Assembly (NCBI GenBank): GCA_003345555.1
Contig: PRDJ01000036.1
Span: 19,809 to 83,808, forward strand
DNA: 64,000 bases
Origin: Candidatus Thorarchaeota archaeon
Lineage (GTDB): Archaea > Asgardarchaeota > Thorarchaeia > Thorarchaeales > Thorarchaeaceae
Direction of reading: 5' to 3'
Shown here: positions 6,303 to 49,979 of the stretch, one piece after another
Numbering within the stretch: position 1 is the first letter of the stretch
Layout of the letters: the number at the start of each line of letters is the position of its first letter
Position numbers and translations under genes: made by a program
Notes under the pieces: generated by a model
Seen by the model: the letters and a program-made list of their open reading frames with translations, nothing else
What the model was told of the DNA's origin: nothing
Databases searched by the model: none

Positions 6303-7721
6303 TCATGACTGACTTGTTCCCAGTCGAGTCCCCTTTGTTCGAATTATGAGAAGCGCGGCTATGCCGAGAAGCGCCGCCGACGAAAGACCCCAGAGGGCGA
6401 GGGTGATTTCACCGGGAATGAAATCGGAAGGATTTGTGAGGACTGTCCCGTTAGCGTAGTGATCTATACTTATCGCGGTTCCCCCTACTTGGTAGAATCC
6501 AACATCGTAGTAATAATCATCCCACGCGTTACCCATTCCTATGCCGTCATCCCATTGGTTTCCCGAGGCATCGTCCCAAGCATTTGGCGCATTGGAATGG
6601 AACCAATTGCCGTACACTCGAAAGCCTGATACTCCATTCTGCAGCAAAATTCCATGCTTCGTATTACCGTGGATGTCGTTGTAGACCACCAAACCTCCGT
6701 ACGTTTGTACTTCTCCGTTTCCAGGAATGGCCAAAATACCGCCCTCGTTAGAGGAAATCAAGTTAGAGACGATACGCACGTTCGGACCGAGAACATCAAT
6801 GCCGAAACCCCGATTCGAGTAGATTGAGTTTGTAAAGATGAAGCAGTTGCTTGACCTGTTTATCGATAACCCCGAGTATAGATTAGAAGACAGGCTGCAG
6901 TTTGAAATCGTGACATTGCCAGAGGTCAGGATGACAACGCCATATCTCGATTGATAGGCAACACAAGACACCAACTCACAATCTTGACAGCCTACCAATA
7001 AAACGCCGTAGGGTACGTCCCGGAAGTTGCCAGTGGATACATAACAATGGTCGCTCCCGATGATGAATAGCTGACCGAATGAACTGGCATCGATGTTCCA
7101 CCCAGTGACATTGTAGAAATAGCCGAGCGGGCGGCTCACTACTGTGTTGTTAGAGAATGTGTGACGGAAGCCAGCCAAATCCGCAGAATCGAACGATATT
7201 CCACCGTTTGGAAGTACGTTGTTGGTAAATGTGCAGCTGTAGGATTCTCTGAGTGATAGGCTTTCCCGACCTCCACCAATCCAGTTGGAATTGAGAGTGC
7301 AGTTTCTGACCAAATACAATCCGACGCCAATCGCGAACGAGTTTATGATACAAAGCTCGATTACAGCATTTGAAACGTTGTTGAGACTGACACAAGGTCC
7401 ATACAGGAAGACGCTAGTAAGCCTGCATCTTCGAATCACAAAACTGACTGATACTTGGCTTATGGACAGAGCGTACTCTAGACTACTGATGGTGTAATTG
7501 TCGATAACATAAGGACTAGAAGCCGTTCCGTTTCCCTGCCACCCCTCTGTGATCGACTGACTAGTGAAATCAGCATCGCCATTGATGATTATACTGCTGT
7601 GTGACTCTTGTGCCAAGTTGAGGAATGCTAGCGTGTCCGCAGTGGGGCATTGCGGCCTCCCCAGCTGAAGTGGAACGAAGACTATAACAAGCCACGCCAC
7701 AAATAATGTTCGGGCCTTCAA
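6303..7721 (-). CDS. Tandem paralog of the 4718-6145 beta-helix surface protein (472 aa)
   Basis: About 50% identity over the whole length to the neighbouring gene, e.g. 'GNGTASSPYVIDNYTIS' vs 'GNGSASNPYLIENYTIQD'. Signal peptide and C-terminal TM anchor 'LGIAALLIIRTKGTR'. Confidence 0.6.
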   Translation of the reverse strand: MKARTLFVAWLVIVFVPLQLGRPQCPTADTLAFLNLAQESHSSIIINGDADFTSQSITEGWQGNGTASSPYVIDNYTISSLEYALSISQVSVSFVIRRCRLTSVFLYGPCVSLNNVSNAVIELCIINSFAIGVGLYLVRNCTLNSNWIGGGRESLSLRESYSCTFTNNVLPNGGISFDSADLAGFRHTFSNNTVVSRPLGYFYNVTGWNIDASSFGQLFIIGSDHCYVSTGNFRDVPYGVLLVGCQDCELVSCVAYQSRYGVVILTSGNVTISNCSLSSNLYSGLSINRSSNCFIFTNSIYSNRGFGIDVLGPNVRIVSNLISSNEGGILAIPGNGEVQTYGGLVVYNDIHGNTKHGILLQNGVSGFRVYGNWFHSNAPNAWDDASGNQWDDGIGMGNAWDDYYYDVGFYQVGGTAISIDHYANGTVLTNPSDFIPGEITLALWGLSSAALLGIAALLIIRTKGTRLGTSQS

Positions 7722-8119
7722 GAATCTCCGCCTCCATTAGCTCAAGGTCACATACCATAACTCCGCTCTTAGGCGTTTCGTCGCGCCATCGGTCAGGCAA
7801 GAAGGTGCAACACAGAAGTATCTGATCCGAACACTATAGCTGGGAGCCGGAAATGACCGGACGGTCCTGTATGGAGCAGTCATGATAGTGCTCGTACTTG
7901 GTGGAACTATACTGGGGAGAATCAGTGCGATAACAGTATGGCTCATGTTGTTGCCCGCCGGGTTGGAAGCGATCAAGGGTCGAGCAAGTACGCGCGACAA
8001 AATAGGTCAGAGTCTGTCTACGACTAGCTTCATCCACCAGTGTTCCGAGGGAGAACCGCGGAAGTGCCCGCCAAGATGCAGACATATATCGCAATACTCC
8101 ATAAATAAGACCACGGCGG

Positions 8120-8863
8120 ATGGAGAGGCACGCATTCCAATCATCTGACTGCAGGTTGAGTGATACTATGGCCTTCGGGATTGTCAACTATGCTTATGCA
8201 ATTGCGGCCGCTCTTGCTTCTGTGTGCGTCATGGCTGTGCTAAGCAGATACATCCGACGACGGCAGGGCTTGGCCCTCTTCTTCGTGTTCTTCTTGGCCG
8301 CCTGTGTGGTGTTGTGCTTGACTTATGCGCTGAGGGGCTTCTATGAGGTCTATCAGGCTCCGGAGCTACTACTGTGGCTACTGCAAAACTACATGTATAT
8401 CGTGATCACGGTGCCTCTCGCTCTCTTCCTGATCTATCCCCTGTTACAACAGACAAGAGGACAAAGGTCTTACTACATCCTGTGGGCGGTCATTGCGGCT
8501 ATTGGGTTGATTGCACTGTTCAATGCGTTGATGATTGCCGTTTCGCAGATTGAGTTTACCTTCACGGACAACTACGGATTGGCCCACTATAGGCTGGTGT
8601 ATCTGCCAATTCCCAACGTGTACATCATCACACTGGGACTTGACGTGATGGTATCGAACGTATCACTCGTTCTGCTGGCAATCAGCTACAGAAAGGAATC
8701 GGATCCCTTCTACAAGCGCAGAGCCCTGTTTCTCTTTGTGGGTTGGACAATCGTGACGTATGCCCAGCTCCTTCACCTGGAGCCATCGCTTGTCATCCTC
8801 AATCCCTTTGCCCTAATCATTGGCACAATTCTTGTCTCGATCGCTGTTTACTTCGGTCCGTGA
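8120..8863 (+). CDS. Polytopic membrane protein (about 7 TM), function unknown
   Basis: Long ORF with several hydrophobic helices. The start may be the internal Met 'MAFGIV' about 16 codons downstream. Confidence 0.4.
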   Translation: MERHAFQSSDCRLSDTMAFGIVNYAYAIAAALASVCVMAVLSRYIRRRQGLALFFVFFLAACVVLCLTYALRGFYEVYQAPELLLWLLQNYMYIVITVPLALFLIYPLLQQTRGQRSYYILWAVIAAIGLIALFNALMIAVSQIEFTFTDNYGLAHYRLVYLPIPNVYIITLGLDVMVSNVSLVLLAISYRKESDPFYKRRALFLFVGWTIVTYAQLLHLEPSLVILNPFALIIGTILVSIAVYFGP

Positions 8864-8876
8864 TTATGCAGGACCG

Positions 8877-9596
8877 TCACGGTTTCAACCGCACCATGAC
8901 GACAACTGGTATAGCTATAACACTTACAGAAATCAAGAACCAAAGAATCGTGTTGAGAGGCGGTAAGTCTGGATCTTCAGACTTCTCGGACGACATGAAT
9001 GATTGAATGTTGCTCTGGCCAAGCACGGTTGTGGACCAACTCCAGTAAGCCTCAGGATAGGCATGAAGCGAGGGACCGTGGCTCTCTGATACACAGACAA
9101 GAACACCAAGAGCGGACTCGTAGTAGAAGTCTCTCTGCACATCGTAGTCACTCTGAGTCCAGATAGTCTGGCATCTCCAGCACGTGAAGGTACCCACGGG
9201 AACATTCACCACAGCAGTTGCCGTGTCATACACAGGAGCCATTGGGTTTGCTGGCGGGATTCTTCCTTGGCCCTCGCCCAAAGTGGCAGTGTCCATCCAT
9301 AACGGATCCATGAATGCGCCCGCTTCTGTACCGTTCGAGTCCACGATACTCCAGCTTGGGAGCTTCACGTACTGCACATTGTCATCTGAGTATTCTATTT
9401 CTACAATCTCCTGCTCTTTCAGCCAGCTTAATACTTCGTACTTCACCTGTGAGCTGGCAGCACTAGTACCAGAGGCCGAATCAAAGACATCATATTCCAA
9501 CAGGAGGCCTATAGGAAAGTCTGCAGATGTCGGTTCTGCACTTGCTTGGGCCTGCACAGGTATGCCACCCATAAGAACGAAGAGGACTGAAACCAA
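8877..9596 (-). CDS. Secreted protein with C-terminal TM anchor, unknown function
   Basis: Signal peptide 'MVSVLFVLMGGIPVQAQASA'. C-terminal 'ILWFLISVSVIAIPVVVMVRLKP' matches the 'IAIPV' anchor motif of the beta-helix proteins. Confidence 0.45.
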   Translation of the reverse strand: MVSVLFVLMGGIPVQAQASAEPTSADFPIGLLLEYDVFDSASGTSAASSQVKYEVLSWLKEQEIVEIEYSDDNVQYVKLPSWSIVDSNGTEAGAFMDPLWMDTATLGEGQGRIPPANPMAPVYDTATAVVNVPVGTFTCWRCQTIWTQSDYDVQRDFYYESALGVLVCVSESHGPSLHAYPEAYWSWSTTVLGQSNIQSFMSSEKSEDPDLPPLNTILWFLISVSVIAIPVVVMVRLKP

Positions 9597-9860
9597 GATA
9601 GTGGCCTTTTAACACGCATGAACTACACGCACTACGACCGCCTCTCCCTTACCACAGCACAGGGCAACCAAGTCTTCTTGCGCATCAACTTGGTTTAGGT
9701 TTCTTGGTCCCTAATGACAGTACAATTCGAAGCGTGGCACTGGCATAGAAGCAAGACGTGCCTTCATACAATAGCGAGCCCTGCCGCGCTAGCCGGTGTT
9801 TCGCTTCGATAGTCACGCTTTAGAGCCGGATAATCACGCACTCATCCGAGGTTCCGACGT

Positions 9861-11069
9861 TTGAACGTACGACGAGCAACAGCAGACGACATCGATGCGA
9901 TAACAGAGTTGTCTCGATATGCCTACGGAGAACCTGAAAGTGAGTCCGCGATATCGCGGAAAAGGGCAGAATTCGGATATGAGCGGTCCTATGTTGCTGA
10001 AGATGATGGTCGGATTACTGCTGCATTGCGGGTTTACCGCTTCGAGCAGAACATTCGAGGAACATGGAAGAGCATGGGGGGCATTGGGGACGTCGCCAGC
10101 GCTCCCGAGGTCCGACGGCAAGGGCAGATAAGAGACCTATTCACCCAAGTCATGGAATCGATGCGGAAGGAAGGTCTGGTCATTAGTACGCTATGGCCCT
10201 TCAAGAACTCTTTCTATGCCCAATTTGGTTATGCGACGTTGCCCCCCAACCGTCGACTTGAGGCTGACCCGTCTATGTTCTCCCAGTGGCCGTTACCTCG
10301 CGGCTATCGCTTGGAGAGATTGCCATTTTCCACAGGCATCAAGCAGTACAGCAAAGTGCATGCAGCAGCCGTCGAGTCAATTCACGGAGCCGTTCGCAGA
10401 GATGAGGCACGTTGGACGGAACTGGGGATTGGAAACAAGGATGAGATAGCCATTGTGTACGGCCCGACTGGCGAACCCGAAGCAGGAATGTGGTACAAAG
10501 CACAGGGCTATGGAGACCCACCCGATGCCAGTGAGAAGCCTGGTACAATGAGGGTCATCGAGTGCTATTGGCTTAACCCTAGGGCACGGGCAGCATTGTT
10601 CAACTACATCTACCTGCATTCTGACCAGACAGTAAGTGTCCGTATCCCCGTCAGTCCGTCTGATGAAGACTCCTATCTTTGGATCGACAGCTTCAACCGC
10701 AAGGCGGTGCTGATTAGGACAACGGGCACTGCCATGGCCAGAATCATCGATGTGGTCGATTTCATCCGGGGTTTGCCTGCCAGCCAAAAGGATCGCCTCG
10801 GAGTCAGAGTTAGAGACCGGCAGTGTACTTGGAACAATCAGACATTCCAGCTAGAGTGCGATGGTCGCCTGATGACCGTCTCACAGGCTGGTAATGCCGC
10901 AGCAAGGACTGAATTGACAATCGAAGGGTTGACTGCGCTCTGCTATGGCGCCCTGACGACGCGTGAGCTGAGGGAGTACGGATGGTTGAGTGCTCATTCC
11001 GAGGATGATTTGCGGCTACTGGATACTTGGTTCCCTACGAAATGCCCTTGGCTAAAAGAACCATTCTAG
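9861..11069 (+). CDS. GNAT N-acetyltransferase, Eis-like (GNAT plus SCP2-like C-terminal domain), 402 aa
   Basis: N-terminus 'RRATADDIDAITELSRYAYGE', then 'RGQGQIRDLF' (acetyl-CoA-binding Q/RxxGxG/A-like motif). Length and layout fit the ~400-aa Eis family. Confidence 0.55.
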   Translation: MNVRRATADDIDAITELSRYAYGEPESESAISRKRAEFGYERSYVAEDDGRITAALRVYRFEQNIRGTWKSMGGIGDVASAPEVRRQGQIRDLFTQVMESMRKEGLVISTLWPFKNSFYAQFGYATLPPNRRLEADPSMFSQWPLPRGYRLERLPFSTGIKQYSKVHAAAVESIHGAVRRDEARWTELGIGNKDEIAIVYGPTGEPEAGMWYKAQGYGDPPDASEKPGTMRVIECYWLNPRARAALFNYIYLHSDQTVSVRIPVSPSDEDSYLWIDSFNRKAVLIRTTGTAMARIIDVVDFIRGLPASQKDRLGVRVRDRQCTWNNQTFQLECDGRLMTVSQAGNAAARTELTIEGLTALCYGALTTRELREYGWLSAHSEDDLRLLDTWFPTKCPWLKEPF

Positions 11070-42287: not shown

Positions 42288-44048
42288 CTACCTAGACTTT
42301 GTCCTGAAGTACAGCATTGCTATAATTAGCGACGACAGCAGGCCTAGAGCTAGCAATAAGCCCCAAAGATAACCAGGGCTCTCCTCCTGTAACATAGACG
42401 TGACGACGACTGTCATCCATGGAGTTGTATGGACATTCTTCATGGAAGAATTATCGACCGCGATAACCCTGTAGACGACAATAGATCCTACAGCATATTC
42501 ACCCAGTGAGGCCGAGTACAAATCTCTCCCTTGAGACTGCATCGTTGCGTTCACTGTATGGTTTGTGTCGAGTCCCCATTCGACTCTTATGCTGCTTATG
42601 TTATTGATGTCCCAGCAGTAGACTTGGACGGTCAAGTTGTTGGCGTAGCCTGTGGTGAATGACTGGATGACTGCGAAGCCACTAACCGTCGGGATATGCG
42701 CGTCGGCGGTCACGTTAACGGTCGTGACTGTTACAGCACTCTGGTTGAAGAAATCAGTCAACGTCATGTTGTAAACATGAATACCTACTGAGAGTCGATC
42801 TACGTTAACACTCAGGTTCTCGCCTCGCCACGTACCGTTCATTAGCACAGCACCGTCGCGAGTGAGGTTGTACGACCGCGGGTTGCTCTCATCTGCACTC
42901 CAGTTCAGATAGTTGCCCTTGTAGCCTTCTTCATAACCAAGATAGGCCTTTCCTGTTACAACGGGAGCCCGAATGTCTTTGTAGATTGTGACATTCAATG
43001 AGTCAGTGTTGTTGCGTCCGTACTTATCAAAAAGCAGTATTGTGAATGTGTAGTTACCCAAGAAGATCGAATCCAAGCTTGTTGTGACGTCGTTACCTTC
43101 AGGATCGATGAAAGTCCATGAAGCCATAGTGATGTTTGTGGGGCTATGAAAAGCAGAGACATTACCGTAGCTACTGTTGGTATAGAGTGTTGTCACTCTG
43201 ACTGTGTAGTTCTTGGGATTGCTGTCATACACATGCCAGACTATCTTGTGTCCCCTTGAGCCAAACTCGAAAGTGAGATCATCGGGCTGGGTAACGGTCG
43301 GAGGAGTCACGTCCAGATAGACAGTGACGTTCACCGAGCTGGTGGCATTGTGTTTGAGAGTGTCGTTGACAAACAGGGTATAGACATACCAGTGAGTTGC
43401 ATTCAAGCCGTCCACGTTTATTGATATGTTCGCACCATAGAACTGTCCAGACTTTACAACCGTACGATTACTGGTGGTTTCGTTAGACGTTCTGGTTACA
43501 TTGTAGAAATCGGGGTTGCTCTCCGTGATATTCCATGTCACAGTATGTCCGAAGCTACCCTCTTCGTAGCTGAAGTTGGCAGGGGCACTTATGATGGGCG
43601 ATGTTGTATCGGCAATCAGTGTTACAAGAACCTCATCCGACACGGACTCATTGCTGGTGTTGAACACCTTGCAGACAAAGACGAATAGTGCGGGCAAAGT
43701 ACTCACTAGCTTCTCAGTGTAGAGGTGGTTCAGAAGCACTTCAATGGCTCCACCTGACCAGGAGCCCGATTTGTGAATCGTACCGTTTCTCGTTACAGTG
43801 TAGTTCTTTGGCGATGGGTCCGTAGAATTCCACACGATTTTCTTGTTTACTGTACCATTCTCGTAAGTCATATCAGAAGGACTGCTGATGCTGGGAGCCG
43901 CTGGAGCGAATTGACCCTCTGGCTTCAGATTGCTAACTAGAGAACTGAAGGACGATGAGACACAGGGTGACAGAACCAACCAAAACACTGTCATGACCAT
44001 GATGAATCTGCTGTGATGGCTCGAAAGCATTGGTGCACCATCCGCCAT
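42288..44048 (-). CDS. Secreted surface protein with 4-5 tandem ~100-aa Ig-like repeats and a C-terminal TM anchor
   Basis: Signal peptide. Repeats of the pattern 'P.V..P.D..YE.GS.GH.I.W...DSNP..Y.V.R'. Many NxS/T sequons. C-terminus 'LWGLLLALGLLSSLIIAMLYFRTKSR'. Confidence 0.6.
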   Translation of the reverse strand: MADGAPMLSSHHSRFIMVMTVFWLVLSPCVSSSFSSLVSNLKPEGQFAPAAPSISSPSDMTYENGTVNKKIVWNSTDPSPKNYTVTRNGTIHKSGSWSGGAIEVLLNHLYTEKLVSTLPALFVFVCKVFNTSNESVSDEVLVTLIADTTSPIISAPANFSYEEGSFGHTVTWNITESNPDFYNVTRTSNETTSNRTVVKSGQFYGANISINVDGLNATHWYVYTLFVNDTLKHNATSSVNVTVYLDVTPPTVTQPDDLTFEFGSRGHKIVWHVYDSNPKNYTVRVTTLYTNSSYGNVSAFHSPTNITMASWTFIDPEGNDVTTSLDSIFLGNYTFTILLFDKYGRNNTDSLNVTIYKDIRAPVVTGKAYLGYEEGYKGNYLNWSADESNPRSYNLTRDGAVLMNGTWRGENLSVNVDRLSVGIHVYNMTLTDFFNQSAVTVTTVNVTADAHIPTVSGFAVIQSFTTGYANNLTVQVYCWDINNISSIRVEWGLDTNHTVNATMQSQGRDLYSASLGEYAVGSIVVYRVIAVDNSSMKNVHTTPWMTVVVTSMLQEESPGYLWGLLLALGLLSSLIIAMLYFRTKSR

Positions 44049-44213: not shown

Positions 44214-45128
44214 TTGATGCCCAAGGCCATCTATGCAATATGGTGGGACCCCAACCTCGGTCCTTTTCTCGGCCGGTCATACCCAGAGAATGATCCGCTG
44301 ACGTCCGAAGAAGCTGTAGTCATCTTCATGGGGCATGGACTGCAACAAGAAGCGAAGGTCGGCTACACAAAGTTGGCAAAGGGGTTGGTGGTATCTTATC
44401 TTGACAGCCCAAACTGTATCGCGGTACTACTGGATGAGAACGATGATCCCTCAGTTGTCGAAAGGAATCTGCTTAGACTCGTCGGCCGTATCAATTTCAA
44501 CAGCAGCAAATGGGATGCGGAGATAACGCGTGCCTTTCTTCTGTTGCAGGAACTCATCGCAGAGACATCTGGCCAAGAGCTGCTTTCCAATCCCCACGTT
44601 ACCAGACTTGTCGAAGACATGGCTACGGGTAGAGTGTCAGCCCTGGTTCCTAGGCACGTGCTAAGGGCAACTGCAAAATACCCAAAGGCTTCGGACTACT
44701 TGGGACCCGATGAGGAAGAGGTCTCAAGACTGCTTAAGGATCTAGAACGTGCAGGCCACTTGGTTCCGAAGACATATGGAAGAAGAGTTGAATGCAGACA
44801 GTGTGGAGGCACCGAAGTCACTCTCGAACTCGCGTGCCCTTCGTGTGGGAGTAATGACATCTACAAAGTCTATCTGGTGTTCTGCCCCAAGTGCGGTAAT
44901 AGGACTCAGACAGTACTCGTAGATGACTTGACCGAGGTACGGTGCCAACAATGCAAGCAGCCTGCAAAGGTGTCAGAACTGTCTGTCATAGACGTGGAGC
45001 TGCTCTGCAAAGGGTGTGGGCAGGCGACAAACGATCCCAAAATTGTACTGTCTTGTGCGAATTGTGGAAAGCACATGACAAACACTGATCTTTTAGGCGG
45101 GACAGGGTTGGCATACTATCCGGCGTAG
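44214..45128 (+). CDS. Roadblock/longin-like N-domain protein with a wHTH-like middle region and four C-terminal zinc ribbons
   Basis: N-terminus 'AIYAIWWDPNLGPFLGRSYPEND'. C-terminus 'CRQCGG...CPSCGS...CPKCGN...CQQC...CKGCGQ...CANCGK'. Confidence 0.4.
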   Translation: MMPKAIYAIWWDPNLGPFLGRSYPENDPLTSEEAVVIFMGHGLQQEAKVGYTKLAKGLVVSYLDSPNCIAVLLDENDDPSVVERNLLRLVGRINFNSSKWDAEITRAFLLLQELIAETSGQELLSNPHVTRLVEDMATGRVSALVPRHVLRATAKYPKASDYLGPDEEEVSRLLKDLERAGHLVPKTYGRRVECRQCGGTEVTLELACPSCGSNDIYKVYLVFCPKCGNRTQTVLVDDLTEVRCQQCKQPAKVSELSVIDVELLCKGCGQATNDPKIVLSCANCGKHMTNTDLLGGTGLAYYPA

Positions 45129-45165: not shown

Positions 45166-46776
45166 TCATGACCTCTTTCGCTCAGTCCCCTTTTGGGGTT
45201 TTGACTTGATGGCTTTCTTCAGAGCATCACGCACGTTCGCAAGTATCTTCTCCGCCTGCGATACGCTGAGACCTTTCGCCTTTGATGACAACCGCTGAGG
45301 TGTCTCGCCTGCGAGTTGCTGTGCCGACTCGTACCCCGCCTCTCGAAGTCTCTCCTCCATTCTTGCACCTATTCCGGGAATCTTGCGTAGTGGAAGTACC
45401 TTCTCCATATCCGGGCCAATTATGTCGTGCATGTCCTTATCGCTGAGCTCTTGCATTCCCATGATGTCAAGCTGGCTCTTTATTGACTCGAATTCCCCTG
45501 ACCCAACGTACTGTTCGACTGTCTGCTTCACAAGGCGTTCGTCGAAATCGAGACTCAACTTCTCTATTTCTATCTCCTTTCCGAGAATCTCTGGGATGGG
45601 TGCAGACCTGTACAGAGCAAGCATTGCAAGAAGAATCGCGATCTGCGTTCCGAGAACTCGCAGATCGGCAGGGGGATACCAGTTGATTACAAAGGAGACC
45701 CGAAGCGATACGGCCCAGAAGAGGGCTACATACCCAGCGAAGAAGATCCATACTGCAGCTGTTCTGCGGCTCTTGGTCCTCGGAGAACCGATTTCGGGCC
45801 ATATCAGTAGCAAGATGAGGCCCAGAAAGAAACCTTCGATGAACCTCTCGGAGACCAGCAAAGCCGCAGCATACAATTGTATGGCCTCCACAGCAATCGG
45901 ACTCAGTATTGTCAGTAGACCAAACAGGAGTACTCCGGTAGTGAAGGCGCCCTTTCTCCCTCTCCGGTCAGCGATTGTTCCAGCAACAACAATCCCTACA
46001 ATCATCATAATGGGCTCATAGAGCGAAAGACCCGAGTACTGGCCCAACGATTCGTACGTGCTAAACCCGGCATCTTGGAGCACCTTGATTATTCCTAGCT
46101 GTGTCCCAAAGTACCACAGGATGTGTCCGGCCATGAGGATTGTGACAGGGATAAAGTACGACAATGCGTTCCCTTGGACGGCAAAGCGTTTGTACTCCAT
46201 TCTCCAAGGTTTGAATGCGAGACCGAGTAGTACCGCGCCAACTGCCAGAATCTCCATCACTGGGATTCCTGATGCATCCAGGTTTATTCCATATGAGCCA
46301 AGAGCTGAGTAGATAGCAAACAGAACCAGTGAGAAGGTCATGAAAGCCGCGATGACCCTTCCCCGATACTTGGCTACCACGGCCTTGCCGAGTTGCACAA
46401 CCCAGCTGAGCAGCATAACCGCCATACCGCTGAAGACGGATACTGTGAACAGCATCTCAAGCCCGGGGGAGGATGTGCTTGGAGTTCCTGTTTGAACGAG
46501 ATACATGCCAACAAACAGGGGAACAATCGCGGCAAACGTCGTAATGACATAGCCTCGTCCGATATAATCGACAATGAATCCGGCCACAAGCAAGGTCAAT
46601 ACTGTAGAAAGGAGACCTATCCCCAAGAACTGTAGATTCTGCCCGCCAAATGCCGGAAAGAGGGCTTGGTTGCTCAATTGAGTAATTGCATACATGAAAT
46701 AGGCCATGGTTGGAGATACTAGCGCGAAGTATGCGGCCTTCCTGAAGGGAAACTCCCTGTACTCAAGCATATCCAA
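45166..46776 (-). CDS. MFS transporter fused to a C-terminal cytoplasmic helix-hairpin-helix (HhH) domain
   Basis: 'DYIGRGYVITTF' and 'ADRRGRKGAF' MFS motifs. C-terminus 'LRKIPGIGARMEERLREAGYESAQQLA' is HhH. Confidence 0.6.
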   Translation of the reverse strand: MDMLEYREFPFRKAAYFALVSPTMAYFMYAITQLSNQALFPAFGGQNLQFLGIGLLSTVLTLLVAGFIVDYIGRGYVITTFAAIVPLFVGMYLVQTGTPSTSSPGLEMLFTVSVFSGMAVMLLSWVVQLGKAVVAKYRGRVIAAFMTFSLVLFAIYSALGSYGINLDASGIPVMEILAVGAVLLGLAFKPWRMEYKRFAVQGNALSYFIPVTILMAGHILWYFGTQLGIIKVLQDAGFSTYESLGQYSGLSLYEPIMMIVGIVVAGTIADRRGRKGAFTTGVLLFGLLTILSPIAVEAIQLYAAALLVSERFIEGFFLGLILLLIWPEIGSPRTKSRRTAAVWIFFAGYVALFWAVSLRVSFVINWYPPADLRVLGTQIAILLAMLALYRSAPIPEILGKEIEIEKLSLDFDERLVKQTVEQYVGSGEFESIKSQLDIMGMQELSDKDMHDIIGPDMEKVLPLRKIPGIGARMEERLREAGYESAQQLAGETPQRLSSKAKGLSVSQAEKILANVRDALKKAIKSKPQKGTERKRS

Positions 46777-46929: not shown

Positions 46930-47823
46930 ATGACAGGACCGTTGAAAGTGCAGGAGTTCATGGTTCTGACGGTAGGAGGAATACCCCTCTTCCATTATTC
47001 ACCCAATGATTCGAGAAAACTCGATACTCTGCTGTCCGGATTCCTTAGTGCCGTCTCAAGCTTCGCGGCCGAGTTTGGAGAGCGTTCAATCCAGAGCCTA
47101 TCCTTTGAAGGCTCGGAGATTCTCTATCAGACAGAAGCAGATGTTCTGTTCGTATTCGTAGTTGGATCTGGTGCAGAGAAGCGCGTCTTGAGGGCTGTGC
47201 TCAGAGACCTTAGTCGCAAGTTCCTCAGTAGCTACCAAGAGGAAATCAAGGCAGACGTTCTCATCGAGGATGCATTCAAGGGCTTTGCCGACGAGGTCAA
47301 GAGATCCTTCTCGTTCTACGAAGGCGTTCTTGCAGTGGCAGCAAGTCTTAGCTCGTTTGTTGTTCCAAAGATAAACCAGGCAACATTCGATGCGGCTGTG
47401 AGCTTGATGGGGCTTTTGGATGAGCTGCATCGTGATTTTGGTATTGGTGGCAGCAGGATTGTGGATGCAATTGATGGAAAGGCCTCCATCTACGATGTAA
47501 GTCGAATAACCGGAATTGAGATTGATCAAGTAACAGAGGTTGTCGAGTATCTCGTCATATGGGGTGTAGTCAGGGTGTTTAAGATGTGTCCAGCAATTCA
47601 GGCAAGCGACGCCAGGTTCGACATCTACCTCGATATCGTTGGTCTTCCCAAACGAGACAATCAGATTCTAATTCGAGCAAGACCTTTCTGTAAAGGCGAG
47701 AAGTCACTGGTTGAAATAAGCGAGAAAATAGGAGTCACAGCTGAAAAGCTACACGAGATACTAGGTAAGCTTGGCAATGCCGTAAGCTGGAACTACATTG
47801 AAGTTACAAGCCTGTCACACTGA
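46930..47823 (+). CDS. Roadblock-like N-domain plus winged-helix protein (297 aa)
   Basis: 'LTVGGIPLFHYSPNDSRKLDTLLSGFLSAVSSFAAEFGE' and a C-terminal wHTH 'IYDVSRITGIEIDQVTEVVEYLVIWGVVRV'. Confidence 0.45.
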   Translation: MTGPLKVQEFMVLTVGGIPLFHYSPNDSRKLDTLLSGFLSAVSSFAAEFGERSIQSLSFEGSEILYQTEADVLFVFVVGSGAEKRVLRAVLRDLSRKFLSSYQEEIKADVLIEDAFKGFADEVKRSFSFYEGVLAVAASLSSFVVPKINQATFDAAVSLMGLLDELHRDFGIGGSRIVDAIDGKASIYDVSRITGIEIDQVTEVVEYLVIWGVVRVFKMCPAIQASDARFDIYLDIVGLPKRDNQILIRARPFCKGEKSLVEISEKIGVTAEKLHEILGKLGNAVSWNYIEVTSLSH

Positions 47824-48037
47824 ATTGCCTGACCGGATCTACAGGACTCTCGACGACGGATATGGGTCTGGTAAGGTATAATAGCAGTGGCACCCAGTCA
47901 CAGGACACGGCTCACCGGGGGTCACATCGCTGGTCAAAGAAGTCCTCATCCTACGTGAAGGCGGAATTCCACTCTTTCATTACAGTGTTGGCGGCACAAA
48001 GAAGCTAGACGAACTCGTTGCAGCCTTCTTATCGGTC

Positions 48038-49225
48038 ATGGGGTCTCTTGCAGAACGAGTAAGTGAACAGCAAATCAAAGTCGTATCGTTCGCCTCGAAC
48101 AAGTTCGTCTGGCAACAAAAAGGCGACCTTCTATTCATAGCCCTGGTGTCGCAGGAAGACAGTGTAGAGATATACCGTGTGTTACTCCGGGACCTTGCAG
48201 ATCAGTTCGTAAGCACGTTCTACTCGGAACTGAAAAGTGGAACGAGTCAGTTCACTGTATTCAAAAGGTTCGCAGACACCGTTGAAGCTACACTTCAAAG
48301 GTTCGATGGTATTCCGGGTCTGGCCCGACGCTACAAGATAGGCCTCCTGCCTGCTGACGATCTGAAGCGGCTAAGGATTGTCATGGCGCAAGCGGAGAGG
48401 CGTCCTGGCGTGATGAGAGGAGCAGTAATCACGCGTGACGGCTTTGTGCTTGCCTCCAACCTTAGGTCATACGAGATGGAAGCCTTGCTGGATCTTCTGG
48501 ATAGTCTGAGTTCCGCTCCTAAGTTAGCTGAAAGGAGCCTGACTCTTTCCCATACGAGCTTGGACCCGTTGACGCGCTTTTTCGTCACTAGGGCGGAGAA
48601 TAACGTGTATTGTATATTCATCGTGAGTGCAGAGAAACCTGACAGCCAGCTCTTGAAGGGAGTTGAGCCTGTGCTCGCCGCTGTCGCTTCTCTTGACCAA
48701 ACAAGCCTGAAAAGAGTTCTCCCCACATATCTAGCCGAGTCGACCGGATTCTACGAATATGATTTGGTCATACCGTTGATCCCTGTTGCAGAGGCGCTAG
48801 ACAGCTCTAGCAGGTTTCTCGGCGGAATCGAGGACACCCTTCGAGCTAATGCTGTTACCGTCCTCAATATTGTAGACCAGAGGAACACAATCACTGACAT
48901 AGAAAGGAAGACGGGGTTTACGGCTGAGGAAACAACTGAAGTACTAGCCCATCTCGTCTCGAATGGCATTGTCAAAATAGCAAAGCTCTATCCCGTCATG
49001 GCTGAAAGGGACAGACGATTTGCGGCATTTCTTGAAGTCGCAGGAATGAATAATAGGGACTATCGCATAGTCGATGCCATCTGGCAGTATTGTACAGGAG
49101 CGTATTCGCTCAAGGAAGTGTCTGACGAAACAGAAATCCCCGCAGCTCGAATACTTGAGGTGCTCAAGTCGTTAGGCAAATACGTCAGATATGAGACAGA
49201 AAGGGTGATGCAACACGTGCGCTGA
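48038..49225 (+). CDS. Paralog of the 46930 gene with two wHTH repeats (395 aa). Homology extends upstream to about 47921 without a canonical start codon.
   Basis: 'ILREGGIPLFHYSVGGTKKLDELVAAFLSVMGSLAERV' is encoded in-frame upstream of the first ATG at 48038. There is an in-frame stop at 47882 and no ATG, GTG or TTG between. Confidence 0.45.
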   Translation: MGSLAERVSEQQIKVVSFASNKFVWQQKGDLLFIALVSQEDSVEIYRVLLRDLADQFVSTFYSELKSGTSQFTVFKRFADTVEATLQRFDGIPGLARRYKIGLLPADDLKRLRIVMAQAERRPGVMRGAVITRDGFVLASNLRSYEMEALLDLLDSLSSAPKLAERSLTLSHTSLDPLTRFFVTRAENNVYCIFIVSAEKPDSQLLKGVEPVLAAVASLDQTSLKRVLPTYLAESTGFYEYDLVIPLIPVAEALDSSSRFLGGIEDTLRANAVTVLNIVDQRNTITDIERKTGFTAEETTEVLAHLVSNGIVKIAKLYPVMAERDRRFAAFLEVAGMNNRDYRIVDAIWQYCTGAYSLKEVSDETEIPAARILEVLKSLGKYVRYETERVMQHVR

Positions 49226-49241
49226 CATAACGTCGAAGATA

Positions 49242-49979
49242 GTGTGTATCCATAGCTTCAGGGGTGGAACTGGGAAGTCCAATATAGCAGCCAATCTTGC
49301 TGCAGTCGCTGCCCTCGATGGAAAGAGAGTTGCTGTCATAGACACCGATGTGGCGTCACCGGGAATACATGTAATCTTTGGACTAGGCAGGCAAAAACTG
49401 AAACACACACTTAATGACTACCTACGCGGAGAGTGTGATATCAAAGACGCCTGTATGGATATGACGAGCGAACTTGGTATCAGGCGAGGACAACTGTTCT
49501 TGATTCCCAGTTCGATGAGCGCCACCGACATTACGCGTATTCTAAGAGAAGGTTTTGAGGTCAGCGATCTCAAGAACGGATTCACTGAAGTGATCAAGGC
49601 AAAGAACCTCGATTACCTCATTATTGATACGCATCCGGGTCTTGACCGCGAGACTCTGCTGTCGATGGCCACGACAGACTTCCTGTTCGTGGTAGCCAGA
49701 ATCGATGAGCAGGACCTACTCGGCACGGCAGCAACATTGAGCGTCGCCAGTAAATTGCAGGTGCCCGATACTCGAATTATCATCAACAAGAAGCCGAGCA
49801 TCTACGAAGACAAGGCGATAATCGAGGAAGTTGAGCGGAAGTTCAAGACGAAGGTCGTTACAATCATCCCGATGCTGCAGATTCTCACCGAGGTTGGTAG
49901 TAGGTACATCGTCTGTTTGAAACATCCAGAGAGTGAATTCACTCAGCGGATGCAGGAGATCTACTCAGTCATCAAATAG
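49242..49979 (+). CDS. MinD/ParA-family (SIMIBI) P-loop ATPase, GTG start
   Basis: Deviant Walker A 'FRGGTGKSNIAANLA' with Arg in place of the signature Lys. 'IIDTHPG'. Confidence 0.65.
   Translation: MCIHSFRGGTGKSNIAANLAAVAALDGKRVAVIDTDVASPGIHVIFGLGRQKLKHTLNDYLRGECDIKDACMDMTSELGIRRGQLFLIPSSMSATDITRILREGFEVSDLKNGFTEVIKAKNLDYLIIDTHPGLDRETLLSMATTDFLFVVARIDEQDLLGTAATLSVASKLQVPDTRIIINKKPSIYEDKAIIEEVERKFKTKVVTIIPMLQILTEVGSRYIVCLKHPESEFTQRMQEIYSVIK

Follow-up and report, generated by a model that had tools for sequence, protein, structure and literature searches.

How is a gene translated when the codon at which its orthologues start has become CTG, and what might its product do beside the ATPase gene that follows it? 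Both questions are raised by three consecutive plus-strand genes, here called p1, p2 and the ATPase gene, in a metagenome-assembled genome (MAG) of a Candidatus Thorarchaeota archaeon (contig PRDJ01000036.1 of assembly GCA_003345555.1; the window, that is, the whole stretch analysed, comprises 64,000 nucleotides, and all positions refer to it). A sequence-only reading had described tandem paralogs, the second lacking a canonical start, ahead of a MinD/ParA-like ATPase with an unusual Walker A residue. We find that this observation as a whole is real and not due to chance, and that its factual claims hold with small corrections. The locus is a conserved Asgard module of paralogous longin proteins and an arginine-variant MinD/ParA ATPase; for its expression and regulation we propose the steps set out below, and we give this account an even chance of being right. 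The parts of the module are as follows, the domains of p2 being taken from an AlphaFold2 (AF2) model:

46930-47823, plus strand: p1, 297 residues, with a longin domain (residues 7-139), a helical linker and winged helices at residues 187-223 and 228-291
47872-47886, plus strand: TATA/BRE-like element (BRE, B recognition element), AAGGTATAATAGCAG, conserved in the p1-p2 spacer
47917-47922, plus strand: Shine-Dalgarno-like GGGGGT, 7 nt ahead of CTG 47930
47930-47932, plus strand: CTG at the conserved p2 initiation position, from the orthologue alignment
47930-49225, plus strand: full-length p2, 431 codons, in a frame open from 47885 and closed by TGA 49223-49225
47930-48334, plus strand: p2 longin domain, residues 1-135
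48338-48694, plus strand: p2 Roadblock domain, residues 137-255
48833-49000, plus strand: p2 winged helix 1, residues 302-357
49013-49195, plus strand: p2 winged helix 2, residues 362-422
49202-49209, plus strand: Shine-Dalgarno-like AGGGTGAT, read from the sequence within the end of p2, 5 nt ahead of ACG 49215
49215-49217, plus strand: ACG in place of the ATPase ATG of the relatives, from comparison with L003, L004 and P0121
49242-49979, plus strand: P-loop ATPase of the MinD/ParA (SIMIBI) class, 245 residues from GTG 49242

In the public annotation p2 is C4K47_04460, a 'hypothetical protein' of 395 residues running from ATG 48038 to 49225. As the sequence-only reading had stated, no ATG, GTG or TTG occurs between the in-frame stops (TAA 47879-47881 and TAG 47882-47884) and this ATG. 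The two genes are paralogous (BLASTP identity 36% over 131 N-terminal residues, E 3e-26, and 29% over 146 C-terminal residues, E 4e-20), and the homology does extend upstream of the ATG, for 35 codons; it ends at 47930/47933, not at 47921 as first proposed, the N-terminal alignment of p1 with p2 opening at codon 17 of the frame from 47885, which is nucleotide 47933. From one-genome-per-species contigs we took 55 loci and compared 50 distinct ones at the codon aligned to 47930. The orthologues in all 50 begin there with a canonical codon (TTG in 33, ATG in 12 and GTG in five), and most carry a GGAGG, GAGGG or GGAGA motif 6-9 nt before it. The window has CTG, the sole near-cognate codon that is suitably spaced from its GGGGGT motif. 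Homologues of p2 (425-433 residues, spanning the whole of p2, the named sources being all Thorarchaeota) open with M/L-VKE[VI], which aligns to L-V-K-E-V in the window. TTG is found in the nearest relatives, L003 (protein identity 76%) and L005 (58%), so that the simplest history of the CTG is one T-to-C transition; judged by this alignment, the ancestral codon was most likely TTG. Initiation at a rare start, CTG 47930, which had been one of three options offered for the missing start, appears to account for the sequence far better than the alternatives. The TTG start is kept also in the distant L066 lineage (L066 3717), and the persistence of so weak a start there and in the 33 loci suggests selection for low p2 translation.

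The 35 codons between the CTG and ATG 48038 differ from those of L003 by 16.8 synonymous and 8.2 non-synonymous changes. On the path to L003 the ratio of non-synonymous to synonymous substitution rates (dN/dS) is 0.08 for p2 codons 2-36 and 0.06 for the rest of the gene, and replacements assigned to the window branch fall on three of the 35 upstream codons as against 26 of the 395 elsewhere, which is not a significant difference (Fisher p 0.37). From the low ratio and the non-significant difference we conclude that the stretch evolved as protein. In the AF2 model, removal of the first 36 residues would take away longin strands 1 and 2 and half of helix 1, so the annotated 395-residue product is predicted to be unlikely to fold; C4K47_04460 probably lacks 36 residues, among them the N-terminal longin strands.

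The ATPase start has also changed, a feature absent from the sequence-only reading. It lies eight codons before the His of HSFRGG in 48 of 51 loci, where the protein reads M-S-G-K-I-V-S-I-H; in the clade of the window this position is ATA. In L003, L004 and P0121 the gene starts with an ATG four codons further up (M-C-A-D-I), which gives an 11-nt overlap with the p2 stop. The ATG of the clade is ACG 49215 in the window, where AGGGTGAT still stands 5 nt before it. Counted from the same His, the window thus shows ACG at -12, ATA at -8 and a GTG gained at -3 (GTA in L003), and this GTG 49242 is the sole canonical ATPase start remaining. Both CTG 47930 and ACG 49215 are T-to-C transitions relative to the relatives. 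Canonical, conserved starts are kept in eight other genes of the cluster, which confines the start anomaly to the p2-ATPase unit. Of genome-wide odd start usage these eight neighbours, whose starts are conserved with L003 and others, give no local sign. Within the compared loci the change of conserved starts to CTG and ACG is limited to this genome and to two of the three module genes.

In 49 of 51 loci the distance from the p2 stop to the ATPase start lies between -29 and +17 nt, and in 28 the overlap is exactly 11 nt; this spacing fits the signature of translational coupling. The proposal in the sequence-only reading of a polarity or positioning switch is compatible with such tight coupling of p2 to the ATPase gene. 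Upstream, the spacer between p1 and p2 measures 60-108 nt and is unconserved among some 50 Thorarchaeota loci except for a box, (c/g)AAGGTAT(A/T)AAG(T/A)G, which in most of them is found some 45-55 nt ahead of the p2 start codon (spacers of L003-L058). By its sequence and place this box is probably the archaeal BRE/TATA promoter of a p2-ATPase transcript. Both in-frame stops that close the p2 frame fall inside it. An Rfam scan of the region for a structured RNA or riboswitch gave no match at E<=1, and a scan for sigma-70 promoters and terminators, a bacterial model that is uninformative for an archaeon, stayed below the shuffled expectation.

One explanation would be errors in the DNA record: the true codons would be TTG at 47930 and ATG at 49215. 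Each change is a single T-to-C relative to the nearest relatives, and a MAG consensus may carry errors. The window, L001 (ENA, ERZ27227667) and L002 (Logan, SRR6436091) are base-for-base identical over both sites, and an identical 395-residue p2 product is encoded on eight contigs. The agreement of three assemblies makes an assembler artefact unlikely; substitutions at just two functionally special bases, with no homopolymer there, would moreover be improbable. We consider sequencing, assembly or consensus error very improbable as the cause of the two codons, including the missing p2 start for which it had been suggested. Recoding of the message is barely conceivable. It would take the form of a programmed frameshift from the out-of-frame ATG 47862, the junction being preceded by five consecutive G, or of C-to-U RNA editing that restores UUG and AUG and so would make both anomalous codons canonical. 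We rejected the frameshift since L003 has ATT in place of ATG 47862, since this ATG precedes the conserved TATA-like box, and since all orthologues start at the CTG-aligned codon; the absence of an Rfam element in the region also speaks against recoding. As for editing, we know of no C-to-U editing of mRNA in archaea.

There remains the choice between a weakened module and a dying one. We propose that full-length p2 would be made by low-efficiency initiation at CUG 47930, driven by the Shine-Dalgarno-like motif and the promoter-like element, and that the ATPase would be made from GTG 49242 by re-initiation, the module being down-tuned and not dead. This Asgard archaeon may then initiate translation at CUG, and perhaps at ACG, near-cognate codons typical of non-AUG initiation in eukaryotes. 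Early pseudogenisation or silencing would explain the same codons as start knock-outs, with p2 untranslated or made as a misfolded 395-residue fragment and the frames not yet decayed. Two adjacent, coupled genes have lost conserved starts where eight neighbours have not; switches from UUG to CUG are almost never fixed (1 of 2,468 ancestral UUG starts, which fits a deleterious change; PMC5622118); and p2 of the window is 57-60% identical to outgroups as against 63-66% for the sister clade. Non-synonymous divergence (dN) of the N-terminal stretch to the outgroup L005 is 0.127 for the window and 0.06 for the sister lineage, over 35 codons that are too few to interpret. Nevertheless, both frames remain uninterrupted (431 and 245 codons), dN/dS amounts to 0.06-0.08 on the path to L003 even with the 35 codons before the ATG, the excess of N-terminal changes is non-significant, and the Shine-Dalgarno-like motifs and promoter-like box are still present. 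Furthermore, the new ATPase GTG, three codons before the P-loop strand, looks like compensation. Decay is possible on this evidence, if rather unlikely.

What the proteins are is best seen from their predicted folds. The AF2 model of p2 (mean predicted local distance difference test score, pLDDT, 82) consists of a longin domain of the order β-β-α-β-β-β-α, a Roadblock-type domain and two winged helices; in that of p1 (pLDDT 83.6) a helical linker joins the longin domain to two winged helices. The order of elements that defines longin domains, β-β-α-β-β-β-α(-α), is found, and residues 137-255 of p2 run, in the model, α-β-β-α-β-β-β-α, which contains the Roadblock/LC7 order α-β-β-α-β-β-β. The N-terminal regions, which had been labelled Roadblock/longin-like, are thus of the longin fold and not Roadblock, the one true Roadblock domain lying in the middle of p2, and the 'one or two' winged-helix repeats ascribed to the proteins are present as two in each paralog. 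In Foldseek searches p2 matched best the CPLANE/Fuzzy-Inturned, Mon1-Ccz1 and BLOC-3 chains (E 9e-9), followed by chains of the GATOR1 complex; it also matched the Thorarchaeota Roadblock protein 7f8m with a template modelling score of 0.71, in an output that does not give the aligned part of p2. The best whole-length matches of p1 were GATOR1/SEA-complex chains of the NPRL2/NPRL3 type (E 6e-9 to 5e-6).

In profile searches, Fuz_longin_1 (PF19036) matches 55 of 56 p2 and 38 of 50 p1 orthologues at E<=0.01; for the window proteins the score is 26.1 bits for p2, equal to the gathering cut-off of 26.1, and 23.0 for p1, which is under it. Intu_longin_1 is found in 14 of 50 p1 orthologues and one of 56 p2 orthologues. 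Robl_LC7 reaches p2 with E 0.05 and 13.8 bits (gathering score 23), and one of 56 orthologues at E<=0.01. The Pfam models NPR2 (PF06218) and HTH_NPRL3 (PF24064) have no matches in p1 and p2 of the window; sub-threshold HTH_NPRL3 matches occur in 5/56 p2 and 2/50 p1 orthologues and in several distant relatives, and NPR2 also recurs below threshold. A profile hidden Markov model of the p2 family, run against the sequences of the PDB, gave only a marginal MarR match and retrieved no chain of NPRL, Mon1 or Fuzzy. Ahead of strand 2 the loop reads G-G-I-P, and its form G-x-P-[IL]-[FY] presumably resembles the loop of Mon1 and Fuzzy. It is a G-x-P sequence and not the strict GP motif of longins that belong to GTPase-activating proteins (GAPs), as that motif is defined in PMC12290439.

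A family with NPRL2-like domain organisation has been reported 'in most Thor MAGs' in a preprint (bioRxiv 10.1101/2020.10.19.343400). It is probably the p1/p2 family, and because of this probable identity the p1/p2 protein type would not be new. The passages of that preprint that we consulted make no mention of MinD, of a paralogue pair or of a link to an ATPase, and our literature searches found no description of a p1/p2-ATPase operon or of an Arg-variant MinD/ParA family. The module combines two known kinds of protein, longin regulators and a MinD/ParA ATPase, in a pairing of which we found no description.

The third protein begins M-C-I-H-S-F-R-G-G-T-G-K-S. Its Walker A sequence, F-R-G-G-T-G-K-S, spans 49257-49280, and in HMMER alignments the Arg (AGG 49260-49262) occupies the column of the signature Lys of KGGxGK[ST] in MinD 1hyq, in 4v03 and in FleN 5j1j, as the sequence-only reading had supposed. 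The segment R-G-G-T-G-K-S (49260-49280) aligns to KGGTGKT of 1hyq and contains the P-loop GxxGxGK[ST] with its catalytic Lys; the switch I sequence V-I-D-T-D and the Walker B sequence L-I-I-D-T-H-P-G also align with MinD and are invariant in the homologues. The substitution is not peculiar to this gene: of the 120 closest homologue clusters, 118 carry [FY]RGGTGKS, which makes the Arg a family trait and not a local oddity. In 15 homologues (from Thor-, Hod- and Helarchaeota MAGs, one MAG labelled Promethearchaeota and one Anaerolineae bacterium) the motifs HSFRGGTGKSN, D-T-D, SPG-H, YLRGEC and I-D-T-H-P-G are invariant down to 49-53% identity. Pfam AAA_31, CbiA and ParA match the protein (E 1e-15 to 1e-13), so that its assignment to the MinD/ParA class stands; against the curated NCBIfam models it falls short of every cut-off, scoring 83.1 bits with TIGR01969 (archaeal MinD; cut-off 201.75), 52 with TIGR01968 (bacterial MinD; 212.9) and 55 with the KGGVGR-variant model (90). 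The Cys of YLRGEC (49440-49460 in the window; P0121-P0240 among the homologues) is invariant, and a single conserved Cys per subunit could, to judge by the motif, form a site that bridges the dimer.

Comparison with MinD, ParA and FlhG shows the Walker A GxGK[ST], the switch I Asp and the Walker B Asp in common, the nearest structures being 1hyq, 4v03/4v02 and FleN, and a place beside the gene of a partner or adaptor is likewise typical of those ATPases. The family described here differs in its invariant Arg for the signature Lys and in its own motifs HSFRGGTGKSN, SPG-H, YLRGEC and DTHPG. It differs from bacterial MinD also in that no cationic amphipathic membrane-targeting helix is evident at its C-terminus, the last 16 residues, ESEFTQRMQEIYSVIK, having a net charge of -1 by a crude check. 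ATPases of the MinD/ParA kind are ATP-dependent dimer switches whose cycle is driven by a co-encoded partner, and the signature Lys of MinD, Soj and NifH touches the nucleotide of the partner subunit. In McdA the lysine is replaced by a non-basic residue and a lysine is supplied from elsewhere, whereas here a basic Arg stands at the same position, in a setting without carboxysome or McdB genes. McdA and other ParA-like ATPases are reported to keep the ATP-dependent dimer switch although the KGG lysine has been exchanged (PMC6582323, PMC8684754).

For the p1-p2 pair the closest known arrangements are eukaryotic. NPRL2-NPRL3 of GATOR1 and Npr2-Npr3 of SEACIT likewise comprise a short and a long paralogue, the long one with an extra middle domain, and NPRL2/NPRL3 share with p1 a longin domain and a C-terminal helix-turn-helix module over the whole length of the structure. 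They differ in that the loop of p1/p2 is G-I-P and not GP and that neither Pfam NPR2 nor NPRL3 is matched above threshold; in contrast to GATOR1, the conserved cluster contains no DEPDC5 or Rag GTPase, the partner gene here being that of a SIMIBI ATPase. The Rab guanine nucleotide exchange factors (GEFs) with three longin domains (Mon1-Ccz1, Fuzzy-Inturned and HPS1-HPS4) are again two paralogues, there heterodimers, and the Fuz_longin_1 and Intu_longin_1 signals are shared. Unlike them, p1 and p2 are without three longin domains, domain 2 of p2 is Roadblock, the C-terminus has two winged helices, and no Rab gene adjoins the module. Two further longin or Roadblock systems differ: SR-alpha of the SRP receptor has an SRX longin domain and a SIMIBI NG domain, the longin domain binds the Arf-like SR-beta and not the SIMIBI domain, and the protein is without winged helices and without a MinD-type ATPase; MglB acts with MglA, a Ras-like GTPase, and there are again no winged helices and no MinD-type ATPase.

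As heterodimers, longin and Roadblock proteins provide platforms on which P-loop switch proteins are bound and regulated. We propose that p1 and p2 would likewise form a heterodimer by way of their longin domains, in the manner of NPRL2-NPRL3 and Mon1-Ccz1, and that the pair would be a platform on the ATP-bound ATPase dimer, controlling its nucleotide cycle, turnover or location. The Arg would take over the role of the signature lysine, crossing the dimer to the ATP phosphates of the other subunit as a built-in arginine finger, and the winged helices or the divergently encoded helix-hairpin-helix (HhH) membrane protein described below would tether the complex to DNA or membrane. The most specific form of this proposal, an archaeal heterodimer of the NPRL2-NPRL3/Mon1-Ccz1 type whose client is a SIMIBI MinD/ParA ATPase with an arginine finger and not a small GTPase, we offer tentatively, as a possibility that the odds do not favour.

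The structural matches of p1 and p2 are themselves GTPase regulators, and Asgard genomes encode many small GTPases. p1/p2 could be a GATOR1-like or Mon1-Ccz1-like GAP or GEF of a Rag-, Arf- or Rab-like GTPase encoded elsewhere, with the ATPase a mere neighbour; the NPRL2-like proteins reported in Thorarchaeota (PMC12290439; bioRxiv 10.1101/2020.10.19.343400) count in favour of this. We find it doubtful: the genes called in the conserved clusters inspected include no small GTPase, the overlap of p2 with the ATPase gene is kept across lineages with only 27-29% p2 identity, the loop is G-x-P and not the strict GP motif, and no arginine finger was identified, a position for one not having been mapped.

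The winged helices invite a different explanation, that of a ParA/ParB-like or transcription-factor system without GAP or GEF logic, in which p1 and p2 would bind DNA, the longin and Roadblock domains would sense a ligand or partner, and the ATPase would be a nucleoid positioning motor; p1/p2 could equally be centromere- or cargo-binding adaptors or regulators. TrmB, HTH_47, MarR and IclR models match the winged helices of most orthologues; TrmB/MarR-type matches occur in 53 of 56 p2 orthologues at E<=0.01 (best E 4e-12), and for p2 of the window the TrmB score is 23.8 bits, under the cut-off of 25.6. An adaptor gene tightly coupled to an ATPase gene is also the classic layout of par operons, known from ParAB, McdAB and SegAB, and downstream of the Anaerolineae homologue of the ATPase a small protein is encoded that weakly matches MarR. 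Against this, p1 matches GATOR1/SEA chains over its whole length in Foldseek, and the C-terminal helix-turn-helix domains of those chains mediate protein contacts; sub-threshold HTH_NPRL3 and NPR2 matches also recur, and no repeat or centromere-like site was seen, no search aimed at one having been made. On balance we consider a ParA/ParB-like or transcription-factor system unlikely.

Several observations weigh against the module account that we prefer. The two damaged starts in one operon, together with the roughly twofold N-terminal dN, could mark early decay. None of the sources consulted reports CUG initiation in archaea, whose starts are given in reviews as AUG, GUG and UUG only (PMC4705826). 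The frequent TrmB/MarR matches leave a plain transcription-factor role possible for the winged-helix proteins. The functional link between p1/p2 and the ATPase is read from gene order. All clients of longin/Roadblock platforms that we know of are small or Rag-type GTPases and not SIMIBI ATPases. Finally, the ATPase family occurs without a longin neighbour in Helarchaeota and Anaerolineae, so the ATPase has no need of p1/p2; the same distribution marks the ATPase as the more ancient component, independent of the longin proteins, which were added in Asgard archaea. Its small neighbours in Helarchaeota (107 and 518 residues) and Anaerolineae (122 residues) have no significant profile similarity to p2, and hence a common ancestral partner could not be shown.

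If the client is indeed a SIMIBI ATPase, control of nucleoside triphosphatases (NTPases) by longin platforms would pre-date, or have coexisted with, the use of such platforms on Rag and Rab proteins in eukaryotes. In Asgard archaea, proteins with longin and Roadblock domains are regarded as precursors of eukaryotic GTPase regulators (GATOR1, folliculin, Mon1-Ccz1 and Ragulator). Here a longin pair belongs, together with an identified NTPase, to a constant gene unit that is apparently coupled in translation, is conserved in Thorarchaeota and recurs in Hodarchaeota. The p1-p2-ATPase set is a concrete, cloneable three-protein system for asking what an archaeal longin heterodimer does, and the uncurated ATPase family, with Arg throughout, is a natural test of the role of the signature residue. 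The CTG and ACG codons provide a clean natural case on the strictness of start codons in the archaeal lineage closest to eukaryotes.

An exhaustive search of 1.84 billion cluster representatives with the p2 profile returned only 15 clusters at E<=1e-30, full-length proteins and fragments together; the weaker matches are for the most part longin domains that stand alone, besides some proteins with the double winged helix only. Outside Thorarchaeota, a single p2 orthologue followed by the ATPase gene is found at the Hodarchaeota locus L060 (with its Logan duplicate L059) and at L065, labelled Promethearchaeota by NCBI; the L059 protein is 27% identical to p2 of the window over its full length (E 9e-67). 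In the L066 lineage a 419-residue p2 orthologue (29% identity, E 2e-70) abuts the ATPase gene. No p1 was seen at the Hodarchaeota-type loci (L059, L060, L065) or at L066, and p1 is probably a Thorarchaeota duplication that has lost the Roadblock domain. At the Anaerolineae locus (L061 5001-6962) the ATPase gene is followed by that of the overlapping 122-residue protein, with its weak MarR-like match, and by a second, different ATPase of the CbiA/ParA type, while a gene for an extracytoplasmic function (ECF) sigma factor lies divergently upstream; this is a different module around the same ATPase family.

Most Thorarchaeota loci share a wider gene order: surface protein, TackOD1 protein, HhH membrane protein, p1, p2 and ATPase. 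Two neighbours of the module in the window were assigned by Pfam:

45166-46776, minus strand: multi-pass membrane protein with a C-terminal helix-hairpin-helix (HHH_5)
44214-45128, plus strand: TackOD1 zinc-ribbon output-domain protein (TackOD1, E 7e-18)

In most Thorarchaeota loci whose flank is long enough, the HhH membrane protein gene lies next to the module in divergent orientation, and it lies divergently upstream also at L059 (1954-3474, minus strand; 25% identity, E 1e-20), L060 and L065 (2018-3484, minus strand). From this recurrence the protein is a possible partner or anchor of the module. A cytosolic HhH domain of the DNA-binding type is unusual on a transporter-like membrane protein. 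The TackOD1 gene is syntenic across the Thorarchaeota loci and was not found beside the module at the Hodarchaeota-type or L066 loci. Its product contains 'WWDPNLGPFL', which resembles the GP motif of GAP-type longins; we rejected the N-terminal 150 residues as a GP-motif longin, since hhalign against p1 gave a probability of 1.8% and there was no Pfam hit.

Downstream, we rejected a 645-residue membrane protein as a member of the module, as it is not homologous to the 652-residue protein beside the Hodarchaeota module and unrelated genes separate it from the ATPase gene in most Thorarchaeota loci. These are acetyltransferase-like and aldehyde:ferredoxin-oxidoreductase-like genes (L021 7831-10117 and most Thorarchaeota), absent from the window and from L003. 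In L003/L004 (contig_23502, 916 kb, isolate MFD04408.bin.2.157) the ATPase gene (7289-8052) and that of the 645-residue protein (8620-10564) are each split into two frames, probably through indel errors of a long-read assembly and not as real pseudogenes. At the other edge of the cluster, 42288-44048 on the minus strand encodes a 586-residue secreted or anchored protein with many N-x-S/T sequons, repeated immunoglobulin-like modules and a C-terminal transmembrane segment, and this sequon-rich protein is conserved at the cluster edge in many Thorarchaeota loci.

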